This document shows positions 2,637 through 59,053 of a DNA stretch of 64,000 bases, piece by piece; positions within the stretch are counted from its first letter, which is position 1, and each line of letters opens with the position of its first letter. The stretch is taken from the NCBI GenBank assembly GCA_029261895.1, contig JAJDAK010000011.1, positions 3,424-67,423 on the forward strand, in the 5' to 3' direction. The position numbers were made by a program, and so were the translations under genes. The notes under the pieces were generated by a model. That model was not told where the DNA came from, did not search any database, and saw nothing but the letters and a program-made list of their open reading frames with translations. The DNA comes from Deltaproteobacteria bacterium. GTDB taxonomy: Bacteria > Myxococcota_A > UBA9160 > SZUA-336.

Positions 2637-2755
2637 GAGCCAATACCCCCGGCGCCAATTCTCGCAGGATACCCTTTTTCGACGCCAACGGAGTCCCAGC
2701 CGTTGTAGAATATCGTCTGACACACCGTCAGTTTTCTGTGAAGGGAAAGGATCAG

Positions 2756-5700: not shown

Positions 5701-6580
5701 CGTACAGCTAAAAATGAAAGCCGATATTTTCGACGGCATGTTCACGGATCGCGTCAATCCAATGCAGGCTGCGATGAACGGAAAGCTCAGCTTCAGCGGC
5801 GATACCGCGAAAGCGATGACGCTGCAACAGATTCAAGCGGATCTCTCACGAATCTACAGCGCCACACGCGAGAGAGTTGGAGATCCCGGGGATCTCGGCG
5901 CGCTCGAGCCTGCTTCGGCCGCGGTTTCGGTCCCGGAAGGCGGCGAGGGCCAAGCGTTGAAACAGGAATTGGTCGACGTGGTGAACGAACTCTATTCCAC
6001 ACAGTTGATCACGGCGACCGGCGGGAACGTCAGCGCGCGAATTCCGGAAACGGACGAACTCTGGATCACACCCAGCCAACTCTTTAAGGGCGACCTCTCG
6101 CCCGAAATCCTGGTGCGCATCGATATTGAGGGCAAGGCGGTGGGAGACCAAGCCCTCTCGGCGTCGAGCGAACGTATGATGCACTGCGCGATTCTGAAAG
6201 CGAAACCGGAAGCGCAGGCCGTTGTTCACGCGCACGCCCCCCATGCGACCATTCTTGCCAATACCGGCCTCCCCTTCTTACCGATCTCCACTGAAGCGGC
6301 GTTCTTCTCGGAGATCCCACGCATACCGTTCATCATGCCGGGTACGAACGAGCTCGCAGAGGCTATCGCGGAAGCGATCGGTGATGGTTGGGCGGTCTTG
6401 ATGCAAAATCATGGGTTGTTGGTCGCGGGTCGCAGCCTGCGCCGAGCCGCAGACATGGTCGAAATCATTGAACGCACCTGTGAAGTGATTCTGGGTTGCT
6501 ACGCCGTCGGTAAAGAACCGCCCGTGCTACCCGAAGAAACCGTTGCGATCTTGCGAGAGATGGGCGACCTCGTCGCCTAG
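2756..6580 (+). CDS. Four-domain fusion protein: FGGY carbohydrate kinase, D-isomer-specific 2-hydroxyacid dehydrogenase, SCP2 sterol-carrier domain, class II aldolase/adducin domain
   Basis: One continuous frame (ORF track 2738..6580 from a GTG start). The ATG at 2756 follows the AGGA-rich stretch ending at 2751. Kinase: GLDLGGSGG...IGAGDTHAALLAAG...GGLARNTFFTQLLSDVLNRPVAVAKGEQTTALGAALSAG. Dehydrogenase: VGLVGLGAVGRQVAKRLQAFGAKLLVFDPY...NLIATPHIGGNT. SCP2: NPMQAAMNGKLSFSGDTAKAMTLQQI. Aldolase: ATGGNVSAR...SSERMMHCAILKA...VVHAHAPHATILA. Confidence 0.8.
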   Translation: MPARYLMGLDLGGSGGRCLLLDPDSGEQFVSTRAWRHAPVQDQGNLAFNLNFNEIDQALTNTIAEALELAGAQASDIAGIACTGMRHGMVLTDRDLQPIFAVPTRDTRAALSIGELVNSVGPRCLEECGSWPNPVHLATRLRWLATTQDELWREASCVLGIGEYFAARLSGEAAAEPSQASASVLLNLASRDWAWNLIDDLNFPRELFPAVRVAGSPLGHVTDEAASALGLTPGTPVIIGAGDTHAALLAAGVVEPGQIGICAGSTAPLMGVLETPRIDPDGRLWVEPHIIPGRSVVESNAGGVGEALEWFARLLFRDEIYPMDHLFANAAEARLGSRGVLSTLGPQVMDGKSLAFPLGRIHLTPFSLIDTAADRADLARGVVEGIAYGLRANAEQIIAHMGTVPEEIVITGGLARNTFFTQLLSDVLNRPVAVAKGEQTTALGAALSAGVGVGVFENLSQASAVTRAVERRHEPHPDHAAAYESIYQGWSRVRNAAMPGDAEAAGLTIQTSLREAPAVQSSAALRFRPKILVTAELDALSLERLQNLGDVEYASFRDAMRLLTGPDLVEALKGVHIFITEVDVVDAAVLEQATDLRAIAICRSDAVNVDLEACTAVGIPALHAPGRNADAVADLTLTYMLTLARKWVDATQFLQRPGGEAGDMARMGQAFQELLGHELWQKTVGLVGLGAVGRQVAKRLQAFGAKLLVFDPYLPSQAARVLGAEPVDLDELLTRSDFVSLHAPVTPTTEGMIGGPEFGRMKQGAMLINSARAALVDYDALITSLKSGHLGGAAVDVFPIEPPAADDPLLSIPNLIATPHIGGNTVEVGAHQGEIITDDLTRMLRGEAPQHALNPAALERFRWDGSRETLDTDTWDDLKRAAGPTVSGPQRAPAVAAVAAKPETDPASRRDDAQYVNARAKMQPLLGAFVADCLDDDALGTFANGKSVILHFILNDLDLDFQLGFAGDRVIGELGAPNPDPDVQLKMKADIFDGMFTDRVNPMQAAMNGKLSFSGDTAKAMTLQQIQADLSRIYSATRERVGDPGDLGALEPASAAVSVPEGGEGQALKQELVDVVNELYSTQLITATGGNVSARIPETDELWITPSQLFKGDLSPEILVRIDIEGKAVGDQALSASSERMMHCAILKAKPEAQAVVHAHAPHATILANTGLPFLPISTEAAFFSEIPRIPFIMPGTNELAEAIAEAIGDGWAVLMQNHGLLVAGRSLRRAADMVEIIERTCEVILGCYAVGKEPPVLPEETVAILREMGDLVA

Positions 6581-7650
6581 GACTGAACCGTTCGCTTGCC
6601 CAAGAGATTGAGCTTGTAGCGACGTATCGTCTCGGGGGCGATCCGTTGACCATCGGTGCTCTCAAATGCGAGCGCGTCCATCGGGCATTGCACGACGCAA
6701 GCACCACAGCGCACACAACGATCGTCATGAGCCAAAATCGCTTTACGAGGCTCTGATTGTTTTTCGAAGCACGCTTCCGGACAAACCTCCCAACATGAGA
6801 ACACGCCCTGGCAACGATCCCGGTCTAGAGAGATCCGCCACTCGCGCTCCGCAAAATGACTTCCACCTTCAATAGGCGTTGAACCGGAGTAATCGAATGT
6901 CAGTACACCGGACAAAAACCATGTCGAGAGAAATGCAGCAGCCCAGGTGCTCGGACCCCCATGGATACAAAGGACCACGAGTGCAGCGACCGCAGTTGCA
7001 AGTAGCGTGAACAAGGTTCTTCGCGGTTCTGGCAAGCGGTCATAGAACTGAAACATGGTGATCGCAAGGACGACCGCCCAAATGACAATCGGCAAGGCGA
7101 ACTCGGAAAATGCAAACGCCCCAACGCCACCGACTACGATCGCCGTAGGAGTCGCCCAGGCGGCCGCCATTTCCAAGCGTTCACGCGTGCCGAAGCGTAC
7201 GCGCCGCATTGCGTCGTCTTTCTTCGCGCCACGCGCGAGATAGCGCGGAATATCTACTGCATCCACGGGACCGAAACGAACCTTCCAACCACAGCGGCGT
7301 GACACCTCGCGTGCTTCAACGCCCGTCGCCGCCAGTTGAGGCAAGATCGCACGCCGATGGGTGACTCGATCTTCGATGCCCGAAGTTTTGAGCGCACTCA
7401 CGACCTGATGCGTGCTGAAGTGTCCTCCCGCAGCCGCGCACCAGATATTGATGCCCGAACTCGGCGCAACGACCAGCCACGCGTCCATACCTTTGAGGGC
7501 TCGGATCACAGACCGAACCGTGAAATCGTAGTTCCCGGTCACGAGTACCGGACTGCTCGAATCCGGTTGCCCGATCGCTCGCAGGCCCGGTTCGGTCGAC
7601 CAGGGAAAAAGACGAAAGCCGGTTTGCATGACGTTGCGCAAGAGACTCAT
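6577..7650 (-). CDS. HgcA-like corrinoid-binding membrane protein fused to an HgcB-like 2x[4Fe-4S] ferredoxin (fused HgcAB-like)
   Basis: ORF track 6577..7893. The ATG at 7650 forms an ATGA overlap with the stop of the upstream methyltransferase. The N-terminal domain has the HgcA-family signature VLVTGNYDFTVRSVIRALKGMDAWLVVAPSSGINIWCAAAGGHF and the downstream DRVTHRRAILPQLAATGVEAREV motif. About 4 predicted TM helices follow. The C-terminus has CQGVFSCWEVCPEAC and CVRCGACVVQCP. Confidence 0.75.
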   Translation of the reverse strand: MSLLRNVMQTGFRLFPWSTEPGLRAIGQPDSSSPVLVTGNYDFTVRSVIRALKGMDAWLVVAPSSGINIWCAAAGGHFSTHQVVSALKTSGIEDRVTHRRAILPQLAATGVEAREVSRRCGWKVRFGPVDAVDIPRYLARGAKKDDAMRRVRFGTRERLEMAAAWATPTAIVVGGVGAFAFSEFALPIVIWAVVLAITMFQFYDRLPEPRRTLFTLLATAVAALVVLCIHGGPSTWAAAFLSTWFLSGVLTFDYSGSTPIEGGSHFAEREWRISLDRDRCQGVFSCWEVCPEACFEKQSEPRKAILAHDDRCVRCGACVVQCPMDALAFESTDGQRIAPETIRRYKLNLLGKRTVQS

Positions 7651-8300
7651 GGGTTTGGCTGCGCGACAATAACGACGAGCGTTCCAAACAAAAACCGCTG
7701 CTCGTGATGGATACGAAACCCGGCGCCCGTAATTTCTTCGACAAGATTGGGAATCGGTCGTGACACTGAACCGACCCAGAACCAACCCAACAAGGCTTGC
7801 GGAACACGCATGAAGGCAAATGTAATGCGTGCAAACACGCCAGATGGGCGCACTTCGTCGGCGATAACCAACAATCCACCGGCGCGAATACATTCGCGCG
7901 CGGACTTGAGCACGTGGTGACGCTCTAGACGCGAGAGTTCAGAGAATGCAAAACTTGCAACGACGGCATCGAACTCTCCGGGTTCAAACTGATCGACCTC
8001 GGCAGCGGTTTGTTCGAGCCAGCGTAAGTTTTGGGCATCCACGAGACGTGTTTTTGCAATCGCAAGCATCTCCGGATTCTGGTCCAGCGCCACCACACGG
8101 GCACCGCGAGCCACCAGCTTCGCCGTAAGCGATCCCGTACCACAACCGATTTCGAGTACGTGAGTTCCGTGCACCGATACCGCAGCGTCTGCGACCGCAC
8201 GATGTATCCGTCTTGCCCGTCCCAACGTTAGTATGTTCATACCCACGTCGTAGCGTTCGGGCGTCGACTCGAGCCATCGCATCAGCGCAAGCGAACTCAT
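7647..8300 (-). CDS. Class I SAM-dependent methyltransferase (Methyltransf_11/25-type)
   Basis: 217 aa. Motif I is VLEIGCGTGSLTAKLVARGARVVALD. The gene has 4-nt ATGA overlaps with the upstream TetR (8297..8300) and the downstream HgcAB-like gene (7647..7650). Confidence 0.8.
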   Translation of the reverse strand: MSSLALMRWLESTPERYDVGMNILTLGRARRIHRAVADAAVSVHGTHVLEIGCGTGSLTAKLVARGARVVALDQNPEMLAIAKTRLVDAQNLRWLEQTAAEVDQFEPGEFDAVVASFAFSELSRLERHHVLKSARECIRAGGLLVIADEVRPSGVFARITFAFMRVPQALLGWFWVGSVSRPIPNLVEEITGAGFRIHHEQRFLFGTLVVIVAQPNP

Positions 8301-8878
8301 GCTGCTAGCACCTTGCGAACACTCATCACTAAGGCTGTTTCAAGTCCGCCGATATCATCAAACGCTCGCCGATCCGCCAGGTACTGCAGAAGCAGACCAT
8401 CCATCGACGCGATCAAAAACGACGCCGTCCAAACTGAATCGAGGTTCGAATCAATCGATCCATCGCGCTGGCCTTCAGCGATCACCTCGGCGAGCAATTG
8501 ACGAATACGCCGAAAAAAATTTCGAAAGTCCAATGCTCGCAACGTGTGCAGGTCGAGCGTGATCGATCCGTTCCGCGACCAGGCTTCAAAGACGTGGCTC
8601 ATTCCAGTCATCAACTGCTCGATACGGCGCGTCGATTCGCCTTTCGACTCCAAGACGCCCCGGAATAGCTTTTCTTCGCTCTCGAGGAGATCACGCGCGA
8701 TGTCGCGAACCAACGACGACTTGTCGGGGTAGTAGTGGTACAGACTTGATCGACCCATACCGGCCGCATCCGCCACCGCGGCAAGCCCGGTGCCTTTGAT
8801 ACCCCGACGTCCAAACACACGCCGAGCGGCAGTTCGAATCTCGGCTTTCTGCGCCACACCATCGACGATCTTTGGCAT
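8297..8878 (-). CDS. TetR/AcrR-family transcriptional regulator
   Basis: 193 aa. The N-terminal helix-turn-helix is RRVFGRRGIKGTGLAAVADAAGMGRSSLYHYYPDK. It is the first gene of the TetR-MTase-HgcAB-like operon. Confidence 0.8.
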   Translation of the reverse strand: MPKIVDGVAQKAEIRTAARRVFGRRGIKGTGLAAVADAAGMGRSSLYHYYPDKSSLVRDIARDLLESEEKLFRGVLESKGESTRRIEQLMTGMSHVFEAWSRNGSITLDLHTLRALDFRNFFRRIRQLLAEVIAEGQRDGSIDSNLDSVWTASFLIASMDGLLLQYLADRRAFDDIGGLETALVMSVRKVLAA

Positions 8879-8969: not shown

Positions 8970-9788
8970 CTATGAATTGCGCGAAAAGAAGAGCCGCTTC
9001 GCGTTCATGTAGAGATACTTGTCGAGCACGCCTTCGCGCAGATCGAGCCCAGCGGCTTCTTCAAGACAGCGCACCATCGAGAGTGCTGGGTGGTCGGAAG
9101 CAAAGATCACTTTGTCCTGGCCGCGCGTATTCATGTAGTGGATGAGCTCGGGCGGAAAATACTTTGGCGCGTACGCACTGGTCTTCAGATACAGGTTCTT
9201 ATATTTCAGCATCAACCGAATGGCTTCCTGCCACCAGGGGTCGGTGCCATGCGCCATCACCAGCTTCAACTCCGGAAAATGAAGGCATACTTTGTCGAGG
9301 TGCATCGGGTGCTGACATTCGCCGGGCACAGGCGGCCCAGGAATCCCCGTGTTGATCGTCACCGGTAAATCGAGCTCGATGCACTTGGCATAGACGGGAT
9401 AGTAAATCGGATCGCACCCCGGTCGATCGATCCAGAACGGCGTGACCCGCGCGAGAACGACCGGATAATTTTCCGCGAAACTCTCGAGCGCCCGAATGAC
9501 TTTCATCCCGCGGCGAGGATCCACCTGCGCGCCCAGCGAAAAGCGATCGGGATGGGCCTTGGGAAATGCGAGCACGTGGTCCGATGGCCGCTCGGGCTCC
9601 GTGGTGACGATCGCGCGTTCCACTCCCAAGCGATCCATTTCCTCCACGACTTCCTCGACTGAGTAATCGCGAAAAAAATCTTCGCCGCCATTGAACAGGT
9701 CTTCCGCCACGCGCACCAGGTAGTCGGGGCGGCCCAACTCGCTCATGTTGACGTTGATCCAGGTATCGATCGCCCGGAGATCAGTCAT
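8970..9788 (-). CDS. Amidohydrolase-2 family metal-dependent hydrolase (ACMSD/LigJ-like)
   Basis: 272 aa with PF04909-like features (HGTDPWW..., a C-terminal FASDHP motif). It overlaps the Rieske oxygenase gene by 8 nt. Confidence 0.7.
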   Translation of the reverse strand: MTDLRAIDTWINVNMSELGRPDYLVRVAEDLFNGGEDFFRDYSVEEVVEEMDRLGVERAIVTTEPERPSDHVLAFPKAHPDRFSLGAQVDPRRGMKVIRALESFAENYPVVLARVTPFWIDRPGCDPIYYPVYAKCIELDLPVTINTGIPGPPVPGECQHPMHLDKVCLHFPELKLVMAHGTDPWWQEAIRLMLKYKNLYLKTSAYAPKYFPPELIHYMNTRGQDKVIFASDHPALSMVRCLEEAAGLDLREGVLDKYLYMNAKRLFFSRNS

Positions 9789-10752
9789 CGCCGCGTAGAA
9801 TTGGCACGCTGAAAAACTGCTTCATCCAGCGTCGGTAGGTACCAATCTGGCCGTCTCCATCGCAGAGCAGTGGTCGGCTGTAGTAGTGCTTGTTCTCCCA
9901 AATGACGATGTCCTCCGCCATTTGTTTTTCCAAGTCTTTAACCAGCGCCGCTCCCACGCCCCGAGTGGCCGAAACCCCGTCGACCTCACGTACCGCGTAC
10001 GCGAAACTCACGTCAGTTGTGTCTTCATCAATCGGCGTTGAGGTATTGACCATCAAAGTTTCCGCGATTCCCGAAACATCAACGGTTTGCAACCCCGGCC
10101 CATAGTCCGTCGTATCGATCCCACCAGTGATCTCACCCTGCGGCGTACCCATCTTCATACGCGATCGGCAACGCAGAATATGACCGTCGATGTCGACTTC
10201 GGTCTCGGGAGACGTATGCGTGCCGTGCACGTAGCGGAAATGAATTTGATCGACAGCGTTCTCGTTCATATCCAGCCAACGACTCTTCACCGTCCAGCGT
10301 CGGATTTGATACGGCGACCATTCCGAAGACCCACATTGCCATAGCTCGGGCACCTCATACGAAGGCGGCTCGTCCTGATCGTGATACCAAGTAAAGAGCA
10401 AGCCGTTACGTTCGACCAAAAGCCATGCACGCATCTTCGCCGTACGAGGAATTTTCTTCGCATACGGAATCTCGATACAGCGCCCTTCTCCATCCCAGAG
10501 CCATGCGTGGAACGGACAGCGAATTCCCTTGCCATCTACCGTACCTCCAAAACCGAGATGCGCGCCCAGGTGAGGACAGTGCGCGTCGAGCAGATGTGCC
10601 TCGCCTTCTTCATCACGAAAGAGCACCAGATGCTGACCGAAGTAGTGCAACGCTTTGACCTCGCCGGCCGCGATGTCATCCGCATACGCGATGCGAAACC
10701 AACCGTTCGCATAGGCGGGAAACGGAAAACGTTGAGAAATCTGACGATCCAT
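9781..10752 (-). CDS. Rieske [2Fe-2S] non-heme iron oxygenase alpha subunit (phthalate-dioxygenase/KshA/VanA-like family)
   Basis: 323 aa. Rieske motif CPHLGAHL...CPFHAW, followed by a catalytic domain. Confidence 0.8.
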   Translation of the reverse strand: MDRQISQRFPFPAYANGWFRIAYADDIAAGEVKALHYFGQHLVLFRDEEGEAHLLDAHCPHLGAHLGFGGTVDGKGIRCPFHAWLWDGEGRCIEIPYAKKIPRTAKMRAWLLVERNGLLFTWYHDQDEPPSYEVPELWQCGSSEWSPYQIRRWTVKSRWLDMNENAVDQIHFRYVHGTHTSPETEVDIDGHILRCRSRMKMGTPQGEITGGIDTTDYGPGLQTVDVSGIAETLMVNTSTPIDEDTTDVSFAYAVREVDGVSATRGVGAALVKDLEKQMAEDIVIWENKHYYSRPLLCDGDGQIGTYRRWMKQFFSVPILRGDD

Positions 10753-10803
10753 CAGATACGACGATATCTGTGGTGCGTCCGCAACGCAAGCGCTTTTCCG
10801 TGG

Positions 10804-11985
10804 TTAGGAATCGAAAAGTACCGGGACGCGATCGGGACCCCGAAACATGAGACCCACCACCCCGCATTGCTGGTCCAGATCGAGCCGAAGGCCAGGCAAG
10901 CGTTCGAAGAGCGCGCGCATGCCGATCTCCGCCTCCAGATACGCCAGGCGAGATCCCGCGCAATAGTGCTTCCCGAAGCCAAACGCGATGTGATCTTTGG
11001 CATCGCGATGGATGTCGAAACGAGCCGCGTCTTTGAAGTGTGATTCGTCGCGGTTCGCGGAACCGATCCCTACCAAGACTTGAGAACCGGCTGGAATCAT
11101 CGTGCCGGCAATCTCCACGTCCTCCAATGCCCGACGGGTCACGAGCTGCACCGGAGACTCCCAGCGCAGTCCCTCATCCAACGCAGGCCGCAGCATGTCG
11201 GGTACCTTGAGAACTTCATCGAACTGCGCAGGATCCCGGAGCAAACCGAGAAACGTGGAACCCATCAGATGATACGTCGTCTCCGCACCCGCGAGCACGA
11301 GCAGTCGGATGAAGCTCACGATCTCCTCTTCCGTCATCCGCTCACCGTCGATCTCCGCGTGGACCAGCCGTGTAATCAAGTCATCGGTCGGCTGCTGTTT
11401 TCGTTTTTCGACGACGGGACGCAGGTAGTCGGCCATACGTTGGGACGCTTCAAGACCACGATTCGCATCCACGGTAACGTGCGTGAGCGAAATCGCCCAG
11501 CGATGAAATTCGGCAACGTCGTCCACGGGCAAACCAAGAAGTTCGATAAATACTTTCAACGGATACACGAACGTAAACGCTTCCACCAAATCCGCCATGC
11601 CGTCATCAGCGAACTGATCAATCAGCTCATGCGCGATCGACTCAACGAGTTTTGGGAAGTCGCCGCGCAGCGCTCTCGGGGCTAACGCGGGTGTCACGAT
11701 ATTTCGATGCTTGAGATGCTCTTCACCATCCATCGCCACGATGGTGCGCCCCATCACCAGACTGATCCCTACGTCATTCGAGCTATTGGAAAACACCCGA
11801 TCGTCACGAAGCGCACGCGCTACATCGTCGTAGCGCGTGATGAGATACCCGTCGCCACCAATGGTTTGTATTTTCAGCACGGGGTGATCGCGTCGAAGCC
11901 GGGTATATGCCGAAAAAGGATCGCGCACCGCATCGAGTTCGCTGCCACCAAATACATCGATAAATGTCGGCGCGGCATCCGTCAT
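10804..11985 (-). CDS. Cytochrome P450 monooxygenase
   Basis: 393 aa. Heme-binding loop FGFGKHYCAGSRLA. ATGA overlap with the upstream TetR. Confidence 0.85.
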   Translation of the reverse strand: MTDAAPTFIDVFGGSELDAVRDPFSAYTRLRRDHPVLKIQTIGGDGYLITRYDDVARALRDDRVFSNSSNDVGISLVMGRTIVAMDGEEHLKHRNIVTPALAPRALRGDFPKLVESIAHELIDQFADDGMADLVEAFTFVYPLKVFIELLGLPVDDVAEFHRWAISLTHVTVDANRGLEASQRMADYLRPVVEKRKQQPTDDLITRLVHAEIDGERMTEEEIVSFIRLLVLAGAETTYHLMGSTFLGLLRDPAQFDEVLKVPDMLRPALDEGLRWESPVQLVTRRALEDVEIAGTMIPAGSQVLVGIGSANRDESHFKDAARFDIHRDAKDHIAFGFGKHYCAGSRLAYLEAEIGMRALFERLPGLRLDLDQQCGVVGLMFRGPDRVPVLFDS

Positions 11986-12584
11986 GACAATGTCCTTCGC
12001 CCTTGCTGCGGTGCTTGAGCGATCAGCCGATAGACGGTGCCTAAGCCTTCGGCTGGATCGTCGGCTTCAGGACTGGGAAAAATCAACATCGAGAGCAACG
12101 CGCGGGTGATCCAATCCACCAACTGGCCGACACTCACTTGGCCACTCACCACGAGGCTCGTGTCCTTCAAGAGCGGGCCCATCAAACCCAGCAACCCATC
12201 GCGAATCAACGGAAACTCTCCGCGCAGCCACTCAAACATCAGCGGCATGTCGGTCTCGCGCAGGCGATTAAGAACAGGGTGCGCACGCATGTAGCGCGCG
12301 GTTTCGTCGAGCACATACTGAATCGCGTCCTCGCTCTCATCAATCGTCTCGAGTAGCTCGATAATCCGAGCGCGGTAGCGCTCGACTTCGTGCTCTGTCA
12401 GTGACGCGTAGACGGCGTCGCGGGTCGGAAAGTAACGGTACAGCGTGCCGCGTGAGACTCCCGCCGCGGCACTGATTTCACCCATGCTGAGCTTGCTCGC
12501 ACCATGGGTCGCGATAGCGCGCAAGGCCCCGGCGAGAATACGTATTCGGGTCTTTGGGCGTAGCTCAGGACTGCTGGATTCCAT
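11982..12584 (-). CDS. TetR-family transcriptional regulator
   Basis: 200 aa. N-terminal helix-turn-helix is ILAGALRAIATHGASKLSMGEISAAAGVSRGTLYRYF. A short ATTTG-T-CAAAT palindrome lies in the 36-bp upstream gap. Confidence 0.8.
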   Translation of the reverse strand: MESSSPELRPKTRIRILAGALRAIATHGASKLSMGEISAAAGVSRGTLYRYFPTRDAVYASLTEHEVERYRARIIELLETIDESEDAIQYVLDETARYMRAHPVLNRLRETDMPLMFEWLRGEFPLIRDGLLGLMGPLLKDTSLVVSGQVSVGQLVDWITRALLSMLIFPSPEADDPAEGLGTVYRLIAQAPQQGRRTLS

Positions 12585-46935: not shown

Positions 46936-48531
46936 TCACCTGCTCGACACAGGCTGTAAATCCGCTTCGCCGTTCCGGTAGAGCGGTTCCATCAAGCCGA
47001 CGACGTCTGAGTTCAAATAGTCGGCGTGTGCACCGATCGGATCCAACCAGCCCAAGGTAAAGTCGACCATCGGTCGTGCAAGGTTTTCAAAGAAGATCCC
47101 CTCCTGGATCTCGTCCGAAGCGTCTACCGCGAAAGCGCCGCTACAAATCGGCAGGTGGCAGCCGTCCGCGAGCGAGCGCTGAAACTCTTCCATCGAAAAA
47201 ACCGGAGGAACATCTCGCTCGAGAATTCCGTGCGTCACAACGCGCCCAACGGATTCATGCAACACCCCAAGATTGAAAAAGCCTTTACTGCGTCGACCCC
47301 AGGGTACTTCCTTACCCGCCACGCGCGAAAGCGCCTCGACTGGAATTTCGACCAGCGGGATCTGCGCCAAGGTGTCCATCACATGATCAACGGGATGCGT
47401 CGCTAGCCCGCGCGTCTGCGTGTACGCATAGCTGATCGGTGTCGACACGATGGTAAATGCCAAACTCGCCGGAATACTCAGGACTTCGGCAAGCGAGCGT
47501 CGCAGTCGAAACCCGGTATCGCCAGGCAGAGACATATGCGGCCGCGGGATTCGAACGTTCGAATTCGGATCCATCGGTCGCATGCGCTCCGGCAGCGGCG
47601 CCTGCATGATGTCCTTCATCATATCTGCCGTGACTTCCATGGTCGACATCGTCGTATCGACTGCGGTACCCACGCCACTTTCGACGTAACTGAAGACGTA
47701 ACGCCGAAAGAACGCCTCAAAAAGCGTAAAACTAAATGCGTTCAAAGGAATATTGGCGACGGGAAACAAGAAACCGTTGGCATGGTCGTGCGCACTTTGG
47801 GTAACGAGAATCGGATACTCGGCGTCGTTGTGCAGACTCGGTCGTGCGAGCGCTGGCTGAATCATCAATGCAGCACTTACACGACTCGCACCGGCGAATG
47901 GTTCGGCTTTAACGGGGAACGGACCGAGGCGATTCTGCATCAGCCCCGACAAGACACGCGTGCCAAAACTATGACCGATCAGATACACGGGTGGCGATTT
48001 TTCGACATCGGGGTAGACGGAGGAAAAAATCACGTTGAGTGCGCTACGGAGACCCCCGAAGCCAATGCGGTCGGCCATCGCAGCTTTCGACCAAAATGAA
48101 ATCGGAAACAAGAGCTGGTCCGGAATGAAAGCGAGTGAATCCGCGATGATGGGGAGCGGAATCACATCGTTCAAAAGTTTGCGAAAACCTGTTTGTGACG
48201 AATCCCAACCAACAGCGATAACCGCGGTTTCACGGAGATCGAGCGCCGACTCCTTACTGAAGTCATCCAACAAGTGCCGATACGTCGAATACGAGACCTC
48301 ACCGTCATTCGCCCAGCCGTAACTGATGACCAAAATACGCTTGATCCCGAGATGAGCGCGCATTTCCTGAACGGCGAGTTCGACCTCGAAGGGGTCCACG
48401 AGATTTCCCCAACGATTAAAGGACAACACGTAGAGCCCGTGAAACATGGGCTCTTGCGCCTTCGCGGCGCTGGCCATCAGGCCCGCGGTCGCGATCAAAA
48501 GCACCAATAACGTGGCGGATAGATTTTTCAC
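46936..48531 (-). CDS. Secreted alpha/beta-hydrolase-fold protein (DUF900-like esterase/lipase)
   Basis: 531 aa. Signal peptide. GxSxG nucleophile motif VYLIGHSFGTRV. Confidence 0.55.
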   Translation of the reverse strand: MKNLSATLLVLLIATAGLMASAAKAQEPMFHGLYVLSFNRWGNLVDPFEVELAVQEMRAHLGIKRILVISYGWANDGEVSYSTYRHLLDDFSKESALDLRETAVIAVGWDSSQTGFRKLLNDVIPLPIIADSLAFIPDQLLFPISFWSKAAMADRIGFGGLRSALNVIFSSVYPDVEKSPPVYLIGHSFGTRVLSGLMQNRLGPFPVKAEPFAGASRVSAALMIQPALARPSLHNDAEYPILVTQSAHDHANGFLFPVANIPLNAFSFTLFEAFFRRYVFSYVESGVGTAVDTTMSTMEVTADMMKDIMQAPLPERMRPMDPNSNVRIPRPHMSLPGDTGFRLRRSLAEVLSIPASLAFTIVSTPISYAYTQTRGLATHPVDHVMDTLAQIPLVEIPVEALSRVAGKEVPWGRRSKGFFNLGVLHESVGRVVTHGILERDVPPVFSMEEFQRSLADGCHLPICSGAFAVDASDEIQEGIFFENLARPMVDFTLGWLDPIGAHADYLNSDVVGLMEPLYRNGEADLQPVSSR

Positions 48532-48656
48532 GGGCCGCAGTATCCCTCTGTAGCACTCGCTTGGATAGGCATGGCAGCTCGAGACCGGGATTTTCCTTGA
48601 CCTCCCCCGGGCTCATTCGTATGCTTGGACGAAATTTGAGGAGGACTCAATTTTAA

Positions 48657-50240
48657 ATGACCCGCCCTCACGACTTCAAACGGAACTCGTCCCAAGACTG
48701 GCCCTTCCCCTTTTCAGCACCGGGGCGACCCAAGAAGCGTGCACTACCTGCGCGCACCGAATCCCGATGGCCTTTCACAAGCATCGACGCGCTGGACTCC
48801 GAACAGCCCCCACCCGTATTTGTGCGCAGTCCGGTTTCGGTCGAAAGTCTCAAGAAGGAACTGCTCGGCTTCGCCGATGATGTCGGCGTCATCTCGATCG
48901 ACCATCCTGCGATCGCACACGAGCGCGATGAGATTCGTTACGTCTACCCGCATGCAAAGTCGTTGATCTGTCTGATTGGCAAAGAAAATAAGGCGGCCAT
49001 GCAGTCGCGCTACCTACCCACGGCCAATCACGAGCTCTACACCTGCGAAGAGCGCATCTTCGAAATGGGTCGTCGCACGATCGAATATATCGAAACACTT
49101 GGCGGCGCGGGACTCACCACGACCATTGGCTGGCCACAAGAAGTTTCTCAACGCTGGGCGGATAAAATCTGGCCGCTGTCGCATAGGTTGGTCGCGCAGG
49201 CGGCAGGTCTTGGCGTGATCGGAACCAGTCGAAATTTCTTACACAAGAAGTTCGGTGCCTATTGCTTGATCGATACCGTCGTATCGAACTTGGAATTTCC
49301 CGATCGTGAATTCGACCAGACCTCGGAATGGAATCCGTGCCTCAACTGCAATCTATGTGTGGCATCCTGCCCAACCGACGCCATTAAAAGCGACGGTGAT
49401 TTCGACTTCTTCGCCTGTTACAACCACACCTACCGCGATTCGATACCGGGGTTCCTCGATCTCGTACAGGATCTTGGCGCTGCCAAACCGAAGCGCTTCG
49501 CCAAGCGCTGGAACGACTCCGAGATCGCGGCACTTTGGCAATCCCTTTCGTTCAAGGTCGAGTACCGCTGCTTCAACTGCGTGGCAACGTGTCCTGCAGA
49601 AATTCACGGACCGTTCCATGCTGACCGTGGCGTGCGGCGCGACTACCTCGATCATGTGATGAAGCCGCTCGCCCATACCCGTCGTCATGTCGAGGAACAG
49701 TTCGTCATCGACACACCATCGGCGCGCGAAGAATTCGGCATACCGCCCGGACAGTGGCGAACGCGTCCAGATATTACGCGCCCCAACGCGCGCGGCACCC
49801 GGCTCGTCAACCTGCAGCGCATCCGCACATCGAATATCGATTCGATGATGCGTAATATGCCGCATTACTTTCGCGGGACCGAAGCGCGCGGCCTCGACTT
49901 CGTGGCCCACCTCGCGTTTAGCGGCGATGGGGGTGGTGACTGGACATTGCGCATCGCCGAACAACGCTGTCAGGTCGTTCCCGAAGCGCCGCCGAAAGCC
50001 GACCTTCGACTACGCTGCGATGGCAGCCTGTTCTTACGCATTCACCGCGGCGAAACGAGCCCTGTTTGGGCACTGATCACAGGTCGATTGCGCCTCGATG
50101 GCCGGCGCGAACTCTTTCTTCATTTCGCTCGACTCTTTCCCTCAACGCTTGGGAATACTCTGCTCGAGCGAGCACAGTGGTATGGGAGACGGATATGGCA
50201 GCGCATTCAGAAACCTTGGCGGAAAAACCGAACGACGTAA
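48657..50240 (+). CDS. QueG/reductive-dehalogenase-like 2x[4Fe-4S] protein fused to a C-terminal SCP2 lipid-binding domain
   Basis: 527 aa. CLNCNLCVASCPTDAI and CFNCVATCPAE cluster motifs. The N-terminal block LLGFADDVGVISIDHPAIAHERDEIRYVYPHAKSLICL resembles QueG/RdhA. The SCP2-like block is DWTLRIAEQRCQVV...LITGRLRLDGRRELFLHFARLFP. Confidence 0.6.
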   Translation: MTRPHDFKRNSSQDWPFPFSAPGRPKKRALPARTESRWPFTSIDALDSEQPPPVFVRSPVSVESLKKELLGFADDVGVISIDHPAIAHERDEIRYVYPHAKSLICLIGKENKAAMQSRYLPTANHELYTCEERIFEMGRRTIEYIETLGGAGLTTTIGWPQEVSQRWADKIWPLSHRLVAQAAGLGVIGTSRNFLHKKFGAYCLIDTVVSNLEFPDREFDQTSEWNPCLNCNLCVASCPTDAIKSDGDFDFFACYNHTYRDSIPGFLDLVQDLGAAKPKRFAKRWNDSEIAALWQSLSFKVEYRCFNCVATCPAEIHGPFHADRGVRRDYLDHVMKPLAHTRRHVEEQFVIDTPSAREEFGIPPGQWRTRPDITRPNARGTRLVNLQRIRTSNIDSMMRNMPHYFRGTEARGLDFVAHLAFSGDGGGDWTLRIAEQRCQVVPEAPPKADLRLRCDGSLFLRIHRGETSPVWALITGRLRLDGRRELFLHFARLFPSTLGNTLLERAQWYGRRIWQRIQKPWRKNRTT

Positions 50241-54886: not shown

Positions 54887-56143
54887 ATGCAATCAGCCAT
54901 TCCTAAATCGATTGATGTCATCAACGCTGCCCAATATGGGCAGACGGGTTACCCGCATGATGAATGGACTCGGATGCGGCGCGAATCGCCGGTTCACTAT
55001 TGTGAGCCTCCGGGTTACAAGCCTTTTTGGGCGATCACCAAGCACGCCGACATCACAGAGATTTCAAAGCAGCCTGAAAAATTTCGCAGCTTCGGGCGCT
55101 TCATTCTGTTTCCAGAGGCCATGGGCGAGGCAGAGCAACTGACTGAAAATCCACCGCTGCGCATGCTCGTCAACATGGATCCGCCCGAACACCGCGACTA
55201 TCGCAAGCTCGTGAGCCATTGGTTCACACCGCGAGCCATCGGAAACTTGAAACCGCGACTCGAGGAAATCACCGCGGAGATTTTTGACGACCTGGCAAGA
55301 GACGGTAGTACCTATGAATGCGATTTTGTTTACGAGATCGCGGTCAAGCAACCCCTCCGCATGATCACCGAACTACTTGGCATTCCCCGCAACGACGAGG
55401 ATTTTGTACTTCGTATCACCAACGAGAATTTCGGTCAGGAGGATCCAGAATTCCAACGCAAAGGTGAAACGCCGGAAGAGCGCCTTGGTTTTCTACAGGA
55501 GGCGTTTGGGTACCTGGCGAAAATCACTGAAGAGCGTCGACTCCAACCTCGGAACGATCTTACAACCGTGCTCGCAAATGCGACGTTCGACGGGGAACCC
55601 GTGCCGCAGTTTGAACTTTTCTCACTGTATTTTTTGATTATGGTCGCCGGACACGATACGACACGAAACGCCATCTCCCATGGCATGCAAGCGCTCTTCG
55701 AACATCCGGATCAACTCCATGAGCTGCTGGAAAATCCCGGGCTTGCTGGTACCGCGGCAGATGAGATCGTGCGTTGGACCACACCGGTCAATCATTTCGC
55801 ACGAACCGCCACTGCCGATTACGAACTACGCGGACAGAAAATTCGCGAAGGCGATTCAGTGGCGCTCTTTTATGCATCAGCCAATCGAGACGAAGAGGTT
55901 TTCGAAGATCCGTTCGCGTTCCGTCTTGACCGATCACCGAATCCCCATCTTGGCTTTGGCATTGGGGAACATTTCTGCCTCGGCGCGCATTTGGCTCGAA
56001 TCGACCTTCAGGTATTCTTTCGGCAATTCGCAGAGCGCGTCGAGTCGATCGAGCTCGCGGGACCGATCGAACAGTTACAGTCGAGCTTCGTTTGCGGACC
56101 CAAGCGGCTGCCCGTGCGCTACCGCTTCAAGCCGAGAGTGTAA
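54887..56143 (+). CDS. Cytochrome P450 monooxygenase
   Basis: 418 aa. FGIGEHFCLGAHLA. Confidence 0.85.
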   Translation: MQSAIPKSIDVINAAQYGQTGYPHDEWTRMRRESPVHYCEPPGYKPFWAITKHADITEISKQPEKFRSFGRFILFPEAMGEAEQLTENPPLRMLVNMDPPEHRDYRKLVSHWFTPRAIGNLKPRLEEITAEIFDDLARDGSTYECDFVYEIAVKQPLRMITELLGIPRNDEDFVLRITNENFGQEDPEFQRKGETPEERLGFLQEAFGYLAKITEERRLQPRNDLTTVLANATFDGEPVPQFELFSLYFLIMVAGHDTTRNAISHGMQALFEHPDQLHELLENPGLAGTAADEIVRWTTPVNHFARTATADYELRGQKIREGDSVALFYASANRDEEVFEDPFAFRLDRSPNPHLGFGIGEHFCLGAHLARIDLQVFFRQFAERVESIELAGPIEQLQSSFVCGPKRLPVRYRFKPRV

Positions 56144-56148
56144 TTTCG

Positions 56149-56949
56149 ATGATCGAAACACCCCATCAGCCATCGGCCGAACTTCATTCCATCGGCACCT
56201 ACGTTCGACTCGTATCCACGCCCCTGGATCGCGTGTTTGAGAATGCGTACGACTGGGAGCACCTGCCCTGGCTCCATGCCCAGGACTTTGCATCGATCTC
56301 ACTTCACGAGAGCGGTCCCTGGGGTTGGCGCGCGCAAATCGGACTGCGACCCGACAGCCGAGGCACACTCGATTTAGAACTTCTCGTCAATCGAGAACAT
56401 TCGTGTTGGGTGTCACGCCCGTGCGGCGGCGAAAGTATGGGCGAAGTATGGACCTATGCGAAAGCCTCGAGTCCGACGGAAACACGCTTGGAGATCAGTT
56501 TTCACGTACCCGTCAAACTCCTGCCCGCAAAAGAGATCCTTTTCGAACAGTATCAGGCGCTGTATCGGCGACTTTGGAATCAAGACGAAGAGATGGCTTG
56601 GCTTCGCGAACGACGTTCATCACGACCACCGTCCGCTGCAACAGAGTTGGATCTTGGATCGGTGAAATCGGTCCGCGCGAGCCTGCCCCTGCAAGTTGAG
56701 TTCGGCGGCCGCCCTTTCCGCCTGGTAGACCTCGACGGCGAACTGGTCGTGCATTCCGCGACCTGTCCGCATTGGTTGGGCCCGTTACAGAATGCCAGTG
56801 TTGTGGACGGCTGCGTGACCTGCCCATGGCATGGCTATCGATTCGATATTCGTACGGGCGAGAACGTGGAAGGACGGAAACTCAAACTTGCGAAAGCGCC
56901 CGCGGTCATCATCGAAGATCATCGCGTGCTGCTTCGAAGTACGGACTAA
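56149..56949 (+). CDS. Rieske [2Fe-2S] protein with inverted domain order: N-terminal SRPBCC/oxygenase-catalytic-like domain, C-terminal Rieske domain
   Basis: ORF track 56092..56949. The ATG at 56149 is 6 nt after the P450 stop. The C-terminus has CPHWLGPL...CPWHGYRF. The N-terminus has ENAYDWEHLPWLH, a D-x2-H-x4-H pattern. Confidence 0.6.
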   Translation: MIETPHQPSAELHSIGTYVRLVSTPLDRVFENAYDWEHLPWLHAQDFASISLHESGPWGWRAQIGLRPDSRGTLDLELLVNREHSCWVSRPCGGESMGEVWTYAKASSPTETRLEISFHVPVKLLPAKEILFEQYQALYRRLWNQDEEMAWLRERRSSRPPSAATELDLGSVKSVRASLPLQVEFGGRPFRLVDLDGELVVHSATCPHWLGPLQNASVVDGCVTCPWHGYRFDIRTGENVEGRKLKLAKAPAVIIEDHRVLLRSTD

Positions 56950-57422
56950 AAACGCCGACGCAGGAAGTACCCGATCGGCAAAGCGAGCAACATCGCTGCC
57001 ATCGACAACGCGACCGGGTGATCAAATCGGGCCAAATGACCCGCGATCGCCGCTCCGCCGAATGCCGCGAGCCCGAGTGGCAGTACGCAGAAAAGAAACA
57101 CACTCAGCCCCAACCCGAGACCACCGGCTTTCAGCGCGGACTTGATGCGACTCGGCGCCACGCCATCCACACTGAGACTCAGCGTAGACGGGCCCTCCGA
57201 TAGATCCCAGTCAAGACCGCTGCAACACTGGCGCTCGAACTCCACAAGTTCTTCCAGCTTACGCTGCAACTCCGGGTTGCGCTCAAAGGTCCACGTACAA
57301 CCATTTGCGCGCTCGTCCTTCCCCGTTGCGAGCGGAAGCAACTCGCTGCGGATCATTTTGATTCGTTCCTGGAGCTCATCCTCCGGAAGATTGCAGAAAT
57401 CAGTGGACTGGCAGTTTCCCAT
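56946..57422 (-). CDS. Hypothetical Cys-containing protein with a C-terminal membrane anchor
   Basis: 158 aa. No family recognised. Confidence 0.35.
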   Translation of the reverse strand: MGNCQSTDFCNLPEDELQERIKMIRSELLPLATGKDERANGCTWTFERNPELQRKLEELVEFERQCCSGLDWDLSEGPSTLSLSVDGVAPSRIKSALKAGGLGLGLSVFLFCVLPLGLAAFGGAAIAGHLARFDHPVALSMAAMLLALPIGYFLRRRF

Positions 57423-57556
57423 GTCATCGATCCTTTCGGCAGAATGATGCGCTGAAGATAGCGCTTCAAGTTAACTTTAAGTCAATAGGTAGATTGCGTC
57501 GCCAGCGCGCTGGTGATAAGAGGGGAAGGTATCGCTCCCCAAGCCAAGGAGAAAAC

Positions 57557-59053
57557 ATGGCCGCGCCTCAAATCCTCGAACCCGTTCAAGATTTTCTAAA
57601 CCAATCTCAAACGTTGCTCATCGATGGCAAATGGGTTGCGCCCGCGAACGGCGAGACTTTCGTGGTGGAAAACCCCGCCACCGAGGCCCATATCGCGACG
57701 GTCGCCCGTGGCGGGCCCGCGGATGTCGAGCGCGCCGTCACAGCCGCGCGCCGGGCGCTTGAGACAGGTCCTTGGCTACGTCTCAACCCCAACGAACGCG
57801 GCAAAATGCTTTGGCGCCTGGCGGATTTGATTGAACAGCATAGCGAGGAATTCGCTCAGCTCGAAAGCCTCGACAACGGCAAACCCCTGACCATGGCGCG
57901 TGCCGCCGACGTCGCTCTTACGATTGATCACTTCCGCTACTACGCAGGTTGGGCGACCAAAATTGAGGGAGAAACCATCCCGATCAATTCGCCAACCGGC
58001 GGCATGTTTCTCGATTACACCTTACGCGAACCCGTTGGAGTCGTTGGCCAGATCATCCCCTGGAACTTCCCACTGCTGATGGCCGCGTGGAAACTCGGTG
58101 CAGCGCTCGCGTGTGGTAACACCGTGGTGTTGAAGCCCGCCGAGCAAACACCACTCACAGCGATCCGCCTGGGGCAGATGATCTGTGAGGCGGGTTTCCC
58201 CGATGGCGTGGTCAACGTGGTCACGGGATTCGGCGACGCCGGGGCCGCATTGGCGCAACACCCCGGCGTAGACAAGGTGGCGTTCACGGGCAGTACTGAA
58301 GTTGGACACGAAATTGTTCGCGCTTCGGCAGGCAACCTGAAGCGCGTCTCACTTGAACTCGGCGGCAAGAGCCCCGCGATCGTTTTCGATGACGCCGATC
58401 TCGAACTCGCCGCAGCTGGCGTGGCGGGAGCGATCTTCTTCAACCACGGTCAATGTTGCGCGGCCGGGTCTCGCCTCTTTGCGGGACCGAAAATTCGTGA
58501 AGAGTTGATCGAACGCGTACGCAAGATCGCGGCGGATACTCGACTCGGTGATGGCTTCGACCCCTCAACCGATATGGGCCCGCTGGTCTCACGCGACCAA
58601 TACAATCGAGTCACCGACTACATCCGGTCAGGAACCGAACAAGGCGCAGCCGTGATTCACGGCGGCGACGCGCGCCCGAAGTCGCTCGAAAAAGGACATT
58701 TCGTGAAGCCCACGATCTTCGGAAGCGTCACCAATGAGATGCGCATCGTCCGCGAAGAAATTTTTGGGCCGGTGGTTTGCGTGCAGGACTTCGAAGACCT
58801 GGATGAGGTCATAGGCCGTGGCAACGATACGCCCTACGGTCTTGCGGCAAGCGTCTGGACCCGCGATATCAACAAAGCGCATCGCGTGGCCGCAGGCTTG
58901 AAAGCGGGAACCGTGTGGATCAACTGCCACAACGTGTTCGACGCTGCAGCACCTTTTGGCGGCTATAAGAAGAGTGGGTACGGACGCGAGATGGGTCGGC
59001 ACGCGCTCGAACTCTACACCCAAACCAAGAACGTGGTCGTCAATCTGGGTTAG
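57557..59053 (+). CDS. NAD(P)-dependent aldehyde dehydrogenase
   Basis: ORF track 57494..59053. The ATG at 57557 has an AAGGAG site 5 nt upstream. ALDH motifs include ELGGKSP and a catalytic Cys region FFNHGQCCAAGSR. Confidence 0.85.
   Translation: MAAPQILEPVQDFLNQSQTLLIDGKWVAPANGETFVVENPATEAHIATVARGGPADVERAVTAARRALETGPWLRLNPNERGKMLWRLADLIEQHSEEFAQLESLDNGKPLTMARAADVALTIDHFRYYAGWATKIEGETIPINSPTGGMFLDYTLREPVGVVGQIIPWNFPLLMAAWKLGAALACGNTVVLKPAEQTPLTAIRLGQMICEAGFPDGVVNVVTGFGDAGAALAQHPGVDKVAFTGSTEVGHEIVRASAGNLKRVSLELGGKSPAIVFDDADLELAAAGVAGAIFFNHGQCCAAGSRLFAGPKIREELIERVRKIAADTRLGDGFDPSTDMGPLVSRDQYNRVTDYIRSGTEQGAAVIHGGDARPKSLEKGHFVKPTIFGSVTNEMRIVREEIFGPVVCVQDFEDLDEVIGRGNDTPYGLAASVWTRDINKAHRVAAGLKAGTVWINCHNVFDAAAPFGGYKKSGYGREMGRHALELYTQTKNVVVNLG

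Follow-up and report, generated by a model that had tools for sequence, protein, structure and literature searches.

A 64,000-nucleotide stretch of the genome of a Deltaproteobacteria bacterium (assembly GCA_029261895.1, contig JAJDAK010000011.1), hereafter called the window, encodes a protein in which a catalytic half resembling epoxyqueuosine reductase (QueG) and reductive dehalogenases (RdhA) is fused to a C-terminal SCP2 lipid-binding domain. The protein is read from a 527-aa open reading frame (ORF) with an ATG start at positions 48657-50240 of the plus strand, stop codon included. By fold and architecture, as judged from sequence comparison and a predicted structure, it belongs to the class-III cobalamin superfamily. 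We propose, with moderate confidence, that it is an inducible, cytoplasmic and probably B12-dependent reductase of a hydrophobic substrate. The superfamily comprises reductive dehalogenases and QueG, which share a nitroreductase-like cobalamin fold together with a pair of [4Fe-4S] clusters; the literature searched describes only two activities for it, the dehalogenation of organohalides and the reduction of epoxyqueuosine in tRNA (PMC7585037). A literature search on fusions of SCP2 with QueG, reductive dehalogenases or Fe-S/cobalamin proteins found no description. The fusion is uncharacterised and well conserved. Probably these enzymes have in it a third branch, so far unstudied, that acts on a greasy small molecule and not on tRNA.

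A first-pass annotation, made from the DNA letters alone, had read the gene as a QueG/RdhA-superfamily Fe-S core with an SCP2 tail, and the domain searches bear this out. In a Pfam scan SCP2 (PF02036) scored 32.4 bits at aa 424-494, against a gathering score of 21.3, and several 4Fe-4S models matched around aa 218-247. No Pfam or NCBIfam model spans the catalytic half. The best NCBIfam match was QueG (TIGR00276, E = 3.8e-13), which reached 49.2 bits where the cutoff is 200 and was restricted to aa 173-254 (model positions 130-207); the RDH model TIGR02486 reached 20.6 bits against a cutoff of 160.35, and PF13486 had no match at E <= 1 in the 527-aa protein. Among PDB sequences, the single sequence matched QueG (5d6s, 8e-8; 5d08, 6e-6) and, weakly, SCP2 proteins. 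A family profile matched QueG at 8e-11 (5d6s) and PceA at 6.8e-7 (8q4h, profile positions 71-213), and hhalign against a three-sequence QueG profile returned a probability of 98.7% (E = 4e-16).

The predicted structure places the catalytic half among cobalamin enzymes. An AlphaFold2 model built from close homologues only had a mean predicted local distance difference test score (pLDDT) of 70.9 and was superseded by a model from a deeper alignment of 60 sequences that mixes the close and broad families described below (pLDDT 83.7, predicted TM-score 0.84). This model contains a single alpha/beta core at aa 56-225. Foldseek matches of the N-terminal half in the PDB were exclusively cobalamin/2x[4Fe-4S] enzymes (QueG, PceA and NpRdhA), with no nitroreductases among them. 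The matches include PceA 8q4h (8.6e-8 over 406 columns), S. multivorans PceA (1.5e-6), QueG 5d0a/5d08 (about 3e-7 over about 250 columns) and NpRdhA (1e-5, with a root-mean-square deviation of about 4 Å over about 219 of 696 residues). The C-terminal half matched the helical-plus-SCP2 tail of alkylsulfatases (E = 6e-8), with TM-scores (normalised to target) of 0.6-0.7 against AF1534, human SCP2 and UbiJ-SCP2, and relatives of the protein match PF14864 (Alkyl_sulf_C). From the predicted fold and the superfamily we infer that the core binds cobalamin.

The ligands expected for two [4Fe-4S] clusters are in place. Eight Cys residues (228, 231, 234, 238, 254, 305, 308 and 312) are invariant in 30 of 30 close homologues and align with those of QueG. 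The first cluster motif, CLNCNLCVASCPTDAI, holds C228/C231/C234/C238, and the second, CFNCVATCP, holds C305/C308/C312. The remaining residue, C254, is aligned with QueG Cys214 by hhalign and supplies the second cluster's fourth ligand from upstream. Because the first Cys that seems to be missing from the second motif comes from this position, the motif is the standard CxxCxxxCP of the QueG/RdhA superfamily (CDDCQLICP in E. coli QueG) and not a shortened version, as had first been thought. In broad-family members PF13484 (Fer4_16) reaches its gathering score.

Purifying selection is strong across the core, with invariant blocks at aa 116-128, 155-196 and 253-266. Its invariant motifs comprise QSRYLPTANHELY (116-128), WPQEVSQRWADKIWPLSH(K/R) (159-177) and AAGLGVIGxSRNFLH (182-196). 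R177, a Lys in most homologues, aligns in both phmmer and hhalign with QueG Arg141, which sits beneath the corrin in the B. subtilis enzyme (PMC5175355). Residues with little or no variation across the close and the broad families alike are K/R177, R192, H196 and the segment C254-x-x-H257-x-Y259-R260, which adjoins a cluster ligand; on the basis of this conservation we propose them as candidate active-site residues. The Gln that orients the cyclopentenediol in QueG (Gln220; PMC5175355) is not kept and aligns with S262, which is Phe or Met in the broad family.

Three further segments distinguish the close family. Its 55-aa N-terminal extension carries the conserved motif DWxFPFxxPGRP...RWPF, is modelled at a pLDDT of 42-75 and is absent from the broad family, as is a 12-residue insertion in the linker (GIPPGxWRTxxD). 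Within this insertion W367-R368 (positions 49755-49760) is collinear with QueG Trp294-Arg295, and hhalign of the close-family alignment extends to aa 370; on its own, the WR segment has P = 0.03. In QueG these two residues form the active-site roof, stacking on the Q base and contacting U35 (PMC5175355), and the alignment is suggestive of an equivalent roof here. The protein ends in a helix (502-522 in the model) with the highest hydrophobic moment of the whole sequence (muH 0.72), and a basic, Trp-rich tail is present in 30 of 30 close homologues, which suggests a possible interfacial membrane anchor. No twin-arginine translocation (TAT) signal, signal peptide or transmembrane segment was found in the reductase (no RR motif accompanied by a hydrophobic region; highest 19-residue Kyte-Doolittle window, 1.09).

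The fusion has a small close family and a very large set of more distant relatives across phyla, which the first-pass annotation did not mention. A protein identical to that of the window exists in NCBI and Logan data, and 238 relatives were found among 5.8 billion proteins searched; the best 120 of these are all full length (about 510-570 aa) at 61-72% identity. The few that bear a name are called “SCP2 sterol-binding domain-containing protein” or [quoted passage not shown]. Across 185,579 species, each represented by one genome, 48 close-family loci were detected, all of them in uncultured metagenome-assembled genomes (MAGs) that are mostly labelled Candidatus Binatia or “Deltaproteobacteria bacterium”. 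One ORF in a Candidatus Limnocylindria MAG, outside this Binatia-like group (L055, 6031-7884), matches both reductase aa 22-279, in the N-terminal half, and a TetR regulator; it could be a copy that is frameshifted, truncated or fused. In an exhaustive HMMER scan of 1.84 billion representatives the close family is a single representative, and a broader family with 26-38% identity and a length of about 420-450 aa spans the same core plus SCP2 architecture. A profile search with this broad family collected more than 2,000 clusters with generic names only, from KSB1, Planctomycetes, Cyanobacteria (Nostoc, Trichormus), Acidobacteria, Alphaproteobacteria and others, including the cultured Schlesneria paludicola (WP_010585749.1).

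Some of these distant relatives carry their own reductase module, another feature absent from the earlier description. Two broad-family members, P0134 (826 aa) and P0140 (811 aa), are fused to an FAD_binding_6/NAD_binding_1/2Fe-2S module. Among the distant relatives P0134, P0140 and P0174 (571 aa), either a PDOR-like module stands at the C- or N-terminus or a cupin replaces SCP2. The PDOR-type fusions in P0134 and P0140 support a catalytic redox role with electrons from NAD(P)H.

The genomic context suggests regulation by a small molecule. Downstream of the reductase, a TetR-family gene, also missing from the first-pass annotation, begins at an ATG at 50195 and overlaps the reductase 3' end by 46 nt, so that the two genes likely share an operon. 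We counted neighbours across 49 close-family loci, using a purpose-built hidden Markov model (HMM) for TetR. In 42 of the 49, a TetR gene lies next to the reductase in the same orientation (upstream in 22, downstream in 17, both in 3), the upstream regulator being of a type with TetR_C_33, and most of the exceptions are on truncated contigs or have a TetR gene 1-2 kb away. The broad family was sampled at 80 metagenomic loci: a co-oriented upstream MarR gene occurs in at least 25 of 73, a short-chain dehydrogenase adjoins in about 22 loci, and HxlR, TetR and MerR regulators are occasional. Trichormus has the order MarR, NmrA-like, reductase, and another broad-family genome has a divergent HxlR gene. 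Given the TetR pairing in the close family and the MarR pairing in the broad one, a ligand-sensing repressor beside a stand-alone reductase is a family-wide theme, and such pairing is typical of inducible catabolic or detoxification genes.

The sigma-70-like promoter candidate upstream of the gene has 9 of 12 consensus matches and is weak evidence, with two sites found against 1.1 expected. As a TetR operator palindrome 5' of the gene only an unconvincing one was found (13 nt, 77% complementary), and it lies inside the neighbouring gene. That neighbour, divergent and upstream (46936-48531, minus strand), encodes a 531-aa protein with no Pfam match, an N-terminal signal-like hydrophobic segment and a lipase/esterase-type GHSFG (GxSxG) motif, and it is not conserved beside the reductase in other genomes. 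One subclade (L034, L037, L039, L044 and L047) has the reductase followed by a second type of TetR gene and then an efflux cassette made up of an outer-membrane factor, an HlyD-type adaptor and an ATP-binding cassette (ABC) transporter, an arrangement that suggests a link to the export of a hydrophobic toxic compound.

Drawing on these features, we infer a working mechanism, including which way electrons flow, what SCP2 does, membrane association, control by TetR and the reaction itself. The single nitroreductase-like core would hold a base-off corrinoid, and low-potential electrons, delivered by a ferredoxin/flavodoxin system or by a partner reductase, would reach cobalt by way of the two [4Fe-4S] clusters. 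By analogy with the alkylsulfatases, the SCP2 domain could take up the hydrophobic substrate and hand it over to the active site, and the Arg/Trp-rich C-terminal helix may keep the enzyme at the membrane surface. The outcome would be reductive cleavage of a C-O or C-halogen bond on a lipophilic molecule. The adjacent TetR would derepress the operon on the appearance of its ligand, which is probably the substrate or else a hydrophobic compound related to it. A reductase that acts on a hydrophobic or lipid-bound substrate had been put forward in general terms in the first-pass annotation, and this idea gains support here; the annotation's more specific suggestion of a lipid epoxide or a halogenated lipid stays a guess, as the substrate is not revealed by any neighbour, motif or paper.

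Several observations weigh against the proposed B12-dependent reductase. The curated QueG and RDH models both score far below their cutoffs, and to our knowledge the class-III superfamily has no sequence motif diagnostic of B12. The proton relay of QueG is formed by Asp134 and His106 (PMC5175355). The Asp134 loop contains a conserved, family-specific insertion (W159-D169) with low pLDDT, in which Asp134 could pair with K170, D169 or S164, and the alignment at His106, in a low-confidence hhalign extension, is unreliable; equivalents of the two residues are therefore not assignable. A match made by eye, of “SRY...NH125” with “SRY...DYH” of QueG and of D169 with Asp134, was not relied on, the hhalign extension giving F135 and S164. 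Nor could the catalytic Tyr/Lys/Arg of RdhA be mapped onto the protein. Cluster ligation may also differ in the broad family, much of which has lost the equivalent of C305, including a major clade with “YKAAYCxAVCPAG” (alignments A2 and A4); seven Cys would then serve two clusters. Compensation by a C-terminal Cys (“CFPS”) was considered and rejected because several members carry both. Finally, no neighbour other than TetR is conserved among the 49 loci (ABC ATPase in 11, enoyl-CoA hydratase in 10, acyl-CoA dehydrogenase in 5), and no genes for cobalamin synthesis or uptake are linked.

Among the alternative readings, a genuine tRNA epoxyqueuosine reductase with an accessory domain is very improbable and largely refuted. 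QueG is its best-scoring curated family and no other, canonical queG was found within the 64-kb window, but the score is 49 bits against 200, the HEAT-like domain is replaced by the linker and SCP2, Gln220 is gone, and a patchily distributed gene under TetR/MarR regulation is unlike a housekeeping gene for tRNA modification. The first-pass annotation had already held the protein not to be a tRNA-acting QueG; it had named, as the contrary evidence, a protein that is the genome's only queG homologue, keeps all tRNA-binding residues and lacks an SCP2 match, and we find a positive SCP2 match and neither the tRNA-binding HEAT domain nor Gln220. A different doubt concerns the cobalamin site, which might be degenerate, leaving an Fe-S or flavin redox/electron-transfer protein or a lipid-binding sensor that retains the ancestral fold. 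We consider this unlikely. The very low curated scores, the unrecognisable catalytic residues of known families, the loss of C305 in many broad-family members and the relationship of the class-III fold to flavin-binding nitroreductases (PMC7585037) would all agree with it, yet strong purifying selection on the core, the conserved Arg141 equivalent and AGLG motif and the restriction of Foldseek matches of the N-terminal half to B12 enzymes do not, and the fusions to reductase modules imply catalytic turnover.

Two further alternatives are special cases of the hydrophobic-substrate reductase. The protein might be a catabolic, non-respiratory reductive dehalogenase for hydrophobic organohalides (such as halogenated lipids, phenols or alkanes) recruited by SCP2, an identity that we regard as doubtful. 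It would fit the resemblance to PceA and NpRdhA in fold and profile, the absence of a TAT signal, as in catabolic RdhAs, the PDOR-like fusions of distant relatives and the pairing with MarR/TetR-type regulators. However, the score of 20.6 bits against 160 for TIGR02486, the lack of PF13486, the single core, a sequence closer to QueG than to RdhAs and the failure to identify a Y426/K488/R552-type triad speak against it, and no rdhB-like anchor gene recurs beside the reductase in the 49 loci. The protein might instead be a QueG-like reductase of an epoxide or C-O bond in a planar-ring lipophilic substrate (a prenylquinone or other lipid epoxide), with W367/R368 as the roof. QueG being the closest sequence relative, the collinear FGxxxGxWR of the close family and the UbiJ-type SCP2 among the fold matches are in line with this, as would be H125 and D169, invariant in the close family, that lie near QueG His106 and Asp134 by eye, an equivalence that hhalign did not reproduce. 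We hold only a tentative, low expectation of it: the WR segment has no more than the P value given above, the His/Asp equivalences are ambiguous, Gln220 is not kept, and no epoxide-forming enzyme is consistently linked, a P450 being near the reductase in some loci only.

At its most specific, the proposal of a hydrophobic-substrate reductase would make of the fusion and its more than 2,000 clusters of relatives a third functional branch within class III, inducible and NAD(P)H- or ferredoxin-driven, that uses cob(I)alamin on lipophilic substrates delivered by SCP2. The Binatia subfamily would have kept the Trp-Arg roof and would reduce a ring-bearing lipid epoxide, or a similar C-O bond, in for example a prenylquinone, a sterol/hopanoid or a carotenoid. 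In all its parts together, this version is speculative and improbable. If the proposal is true, B12 reductive chemistry would gain a new substrate class and possibly a new reaction, and an unrecognised demand for B12 would be indicated in bacteria of soil and water, aerobes such as Nostoc and Schlesneria among them. The family could also be a source of self-sufficient reductases that tolerate oxygen, for use in biocatalysis or in the bioremediation of hydrophobic compounds; the fused versions of the P0134/P0140 type would be the easiest to assay. The adjacent TetR/MarR regulators give experiments a direct way to the substrate.

Features of the reductase locus, in positions of the window; the coding sequence includes the stop codon
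Feature	Position	Strand	Basis
Coding sequence, reductase-SCP2 fusion, 527 aa	48657..50240	+	ORF list, HMM and homologue searches
Sigma-70-like promoter candidate TTGACC-17-TATGCT, 5' of reductase gene	48597..48625	+	consensus scan
Ribosome-binding site GAGGAGG, 12 nt 5' of ATG	48638..48644	+	read from sequence
N-terminal extension, aa 1-55	48657..48821	+	alignments; close family only
Cobalamin-binding-type alpha/beta core, aa 56-225	48822..49331	+	phmmer, hhalign, profile, Foldseek
2x[4Fe-4S] ferredoxin-type domain, aa 226-316	49332..49604	+	alignments, hhalign
Helical linker, aa 317-390, with 12-residue close-family insertion	49605..49826	+	hhalign, alignments
SCP2/alkylsulfatase-C-type lipid-binding domain, aa ~391-497	49827..50147	+	PF02036, Foldseek
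Arg/Trp-rich amphipathic C-terminal helix, aa ~498-527	50148..50237	+	hydrophobic moment, model
TetR-family regulator gene, 213 aa	50195..50836	+	PF00440 60.7 bits; gene call in identical contig L001

Elsewhere in the window, an HgcA-like corrinoid protein that the first-pass annotation had offered as context does exist. Its ORF (6577-7893, minus strand, 438 aa) encodes a CdhD-type corrinoid domain, the cap-helix motif NIWCA and a C-terminal 2x[4Fe-4S] module. It adds no support for the reductase, because it lies 41 kb away and is unlinked to the reductase in 48 other genomes. This fused HgcA/HgcB-like gene is followed by genes for a UbiE-type S-adenosylmethionine methyltransferase and a TetR regulator (7647-8300 and 8297-8878, both on the minus strand), and together the genes at 6577-8878 form a possible corrinoid-dependent methyl-transfer cassette that is positionally unrelated to the reductase. 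A second SCP2 fusion (2738-6580, plus strand, 1,280 aa) joins an FGGY sugar kinase, a D-2-hydroxyacid dehydrogenase, SCP2 (aa 953-1032) and a class II aldolase. Genes for the oxidation of hydrophobic substrates abound in the window, in keeping with the hydrocarbon/steroid-type metabolism reported for Binatia: two further regions (9781-12584, minus strand, and 54887-59053, plus strand) encode a KshA-like Rieske oxygenase and a Rieske protein, two cytochrome P450s and an aldehyde dehydrogenase, along with several TetR regulators.

Compared with known systems, and as far as sequence comparison can tell, the fusion is neither QueG proper nor a canonical RdhA. Like QueG (TIGR00276; 5D08, 5D0B, 5D6S), it has one alpha/beta core of the cobalamin type with a 2x[4Fe-4S] domain behind it, the succession of CxxCxxCxxxCP, a Cys 16 residues later and then CxxCxxxCP, the AGLG motif and a counterpart of Arg141 in R/K177; the collinear FGxxxGxWR segment matching Trp294/Arg295 is shared by the close family only. 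The tRNA-binding HEAT-like domain of QueG, which spans Leu257-Leu385 in B. subtilis (PMC5175355), is alignable only over its first ~40 residues, up to W294/R295, and its place is taken here by the helical linker, SCP2 and the basic amphipathic tail. The fusion also departs from QueG in its 55-aa N-terminal extension, the insertion in the Asp134 loop, a longer C254-C305 insert, the lack of Gln220, the TetR gene at its side and an HMM score at a quarter of the cutoff.

Catabolic RdhAs (NpRdhA, BhbA, JtRdhA; 4RAS, 6ZY1) resemble the fusion in being cytoplasmic enzymes without a TAT signal that combine 2x[4Fe-4S] with a cobalamin-type core, in the PDOR-like FAD/NAD/2Fe-2S module (found here in distant relatives) and in their linkage to regulators that sense small molecules. 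They have a duplicated cobalamin-binding core and no TAT signal, and most of them are NADPH-driven through a fused PDOR-type module (PMC10463259). Their length is about 700 aa, whereas the fusion has one core, about 527 aa and SCP2; equivalents of the Y426/K488/R552 triad were not identified in it, in a comparison that involves no residue-level superposition. Respiratory PceA (8Q4H, 4UR3) is the best Foldseek match of the catalytic half and gives a profile match over the core, but the fusion has a different C-terminus and neither a TAT signal peptide nor a conserved RdhB-type anchor gene.

The alkylsulfatases SdsA1, Pisa1 and YjcS (2CFU, 2YHE, 4AXH) are alike in the C-terminal ~260 residues, helical plus SCP2-type, which give the top Foldseek matches; their catalytic domain has a metallo-beta-lactamase fold, in contrast to the cobalamin/Fe-S-type reductase core of the fusion. 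The SdsA1 structure paper reportedly proposes that in alkylsulfatases this tail recruits hydrophobic alkyl substrates. A further comparison is with the broad SCP2 family (WP_010585749.1, Nostoc, Trichormus; about 445 aa), which shares the core plus SCP2 at 27-35% identity, the residues C228/231/234/238/254/308/312 and a repressor partner. It has neither the N-terminal extension nor the GxWR insertion nor the basic C-terminal helix, and C305, H125 and D169 are not conserved in it. The partner in the broad family is usually MarR and its hosts belong to many phyla, whereas the close family pairs with TetR and is confined to Binatia-like MAGs.

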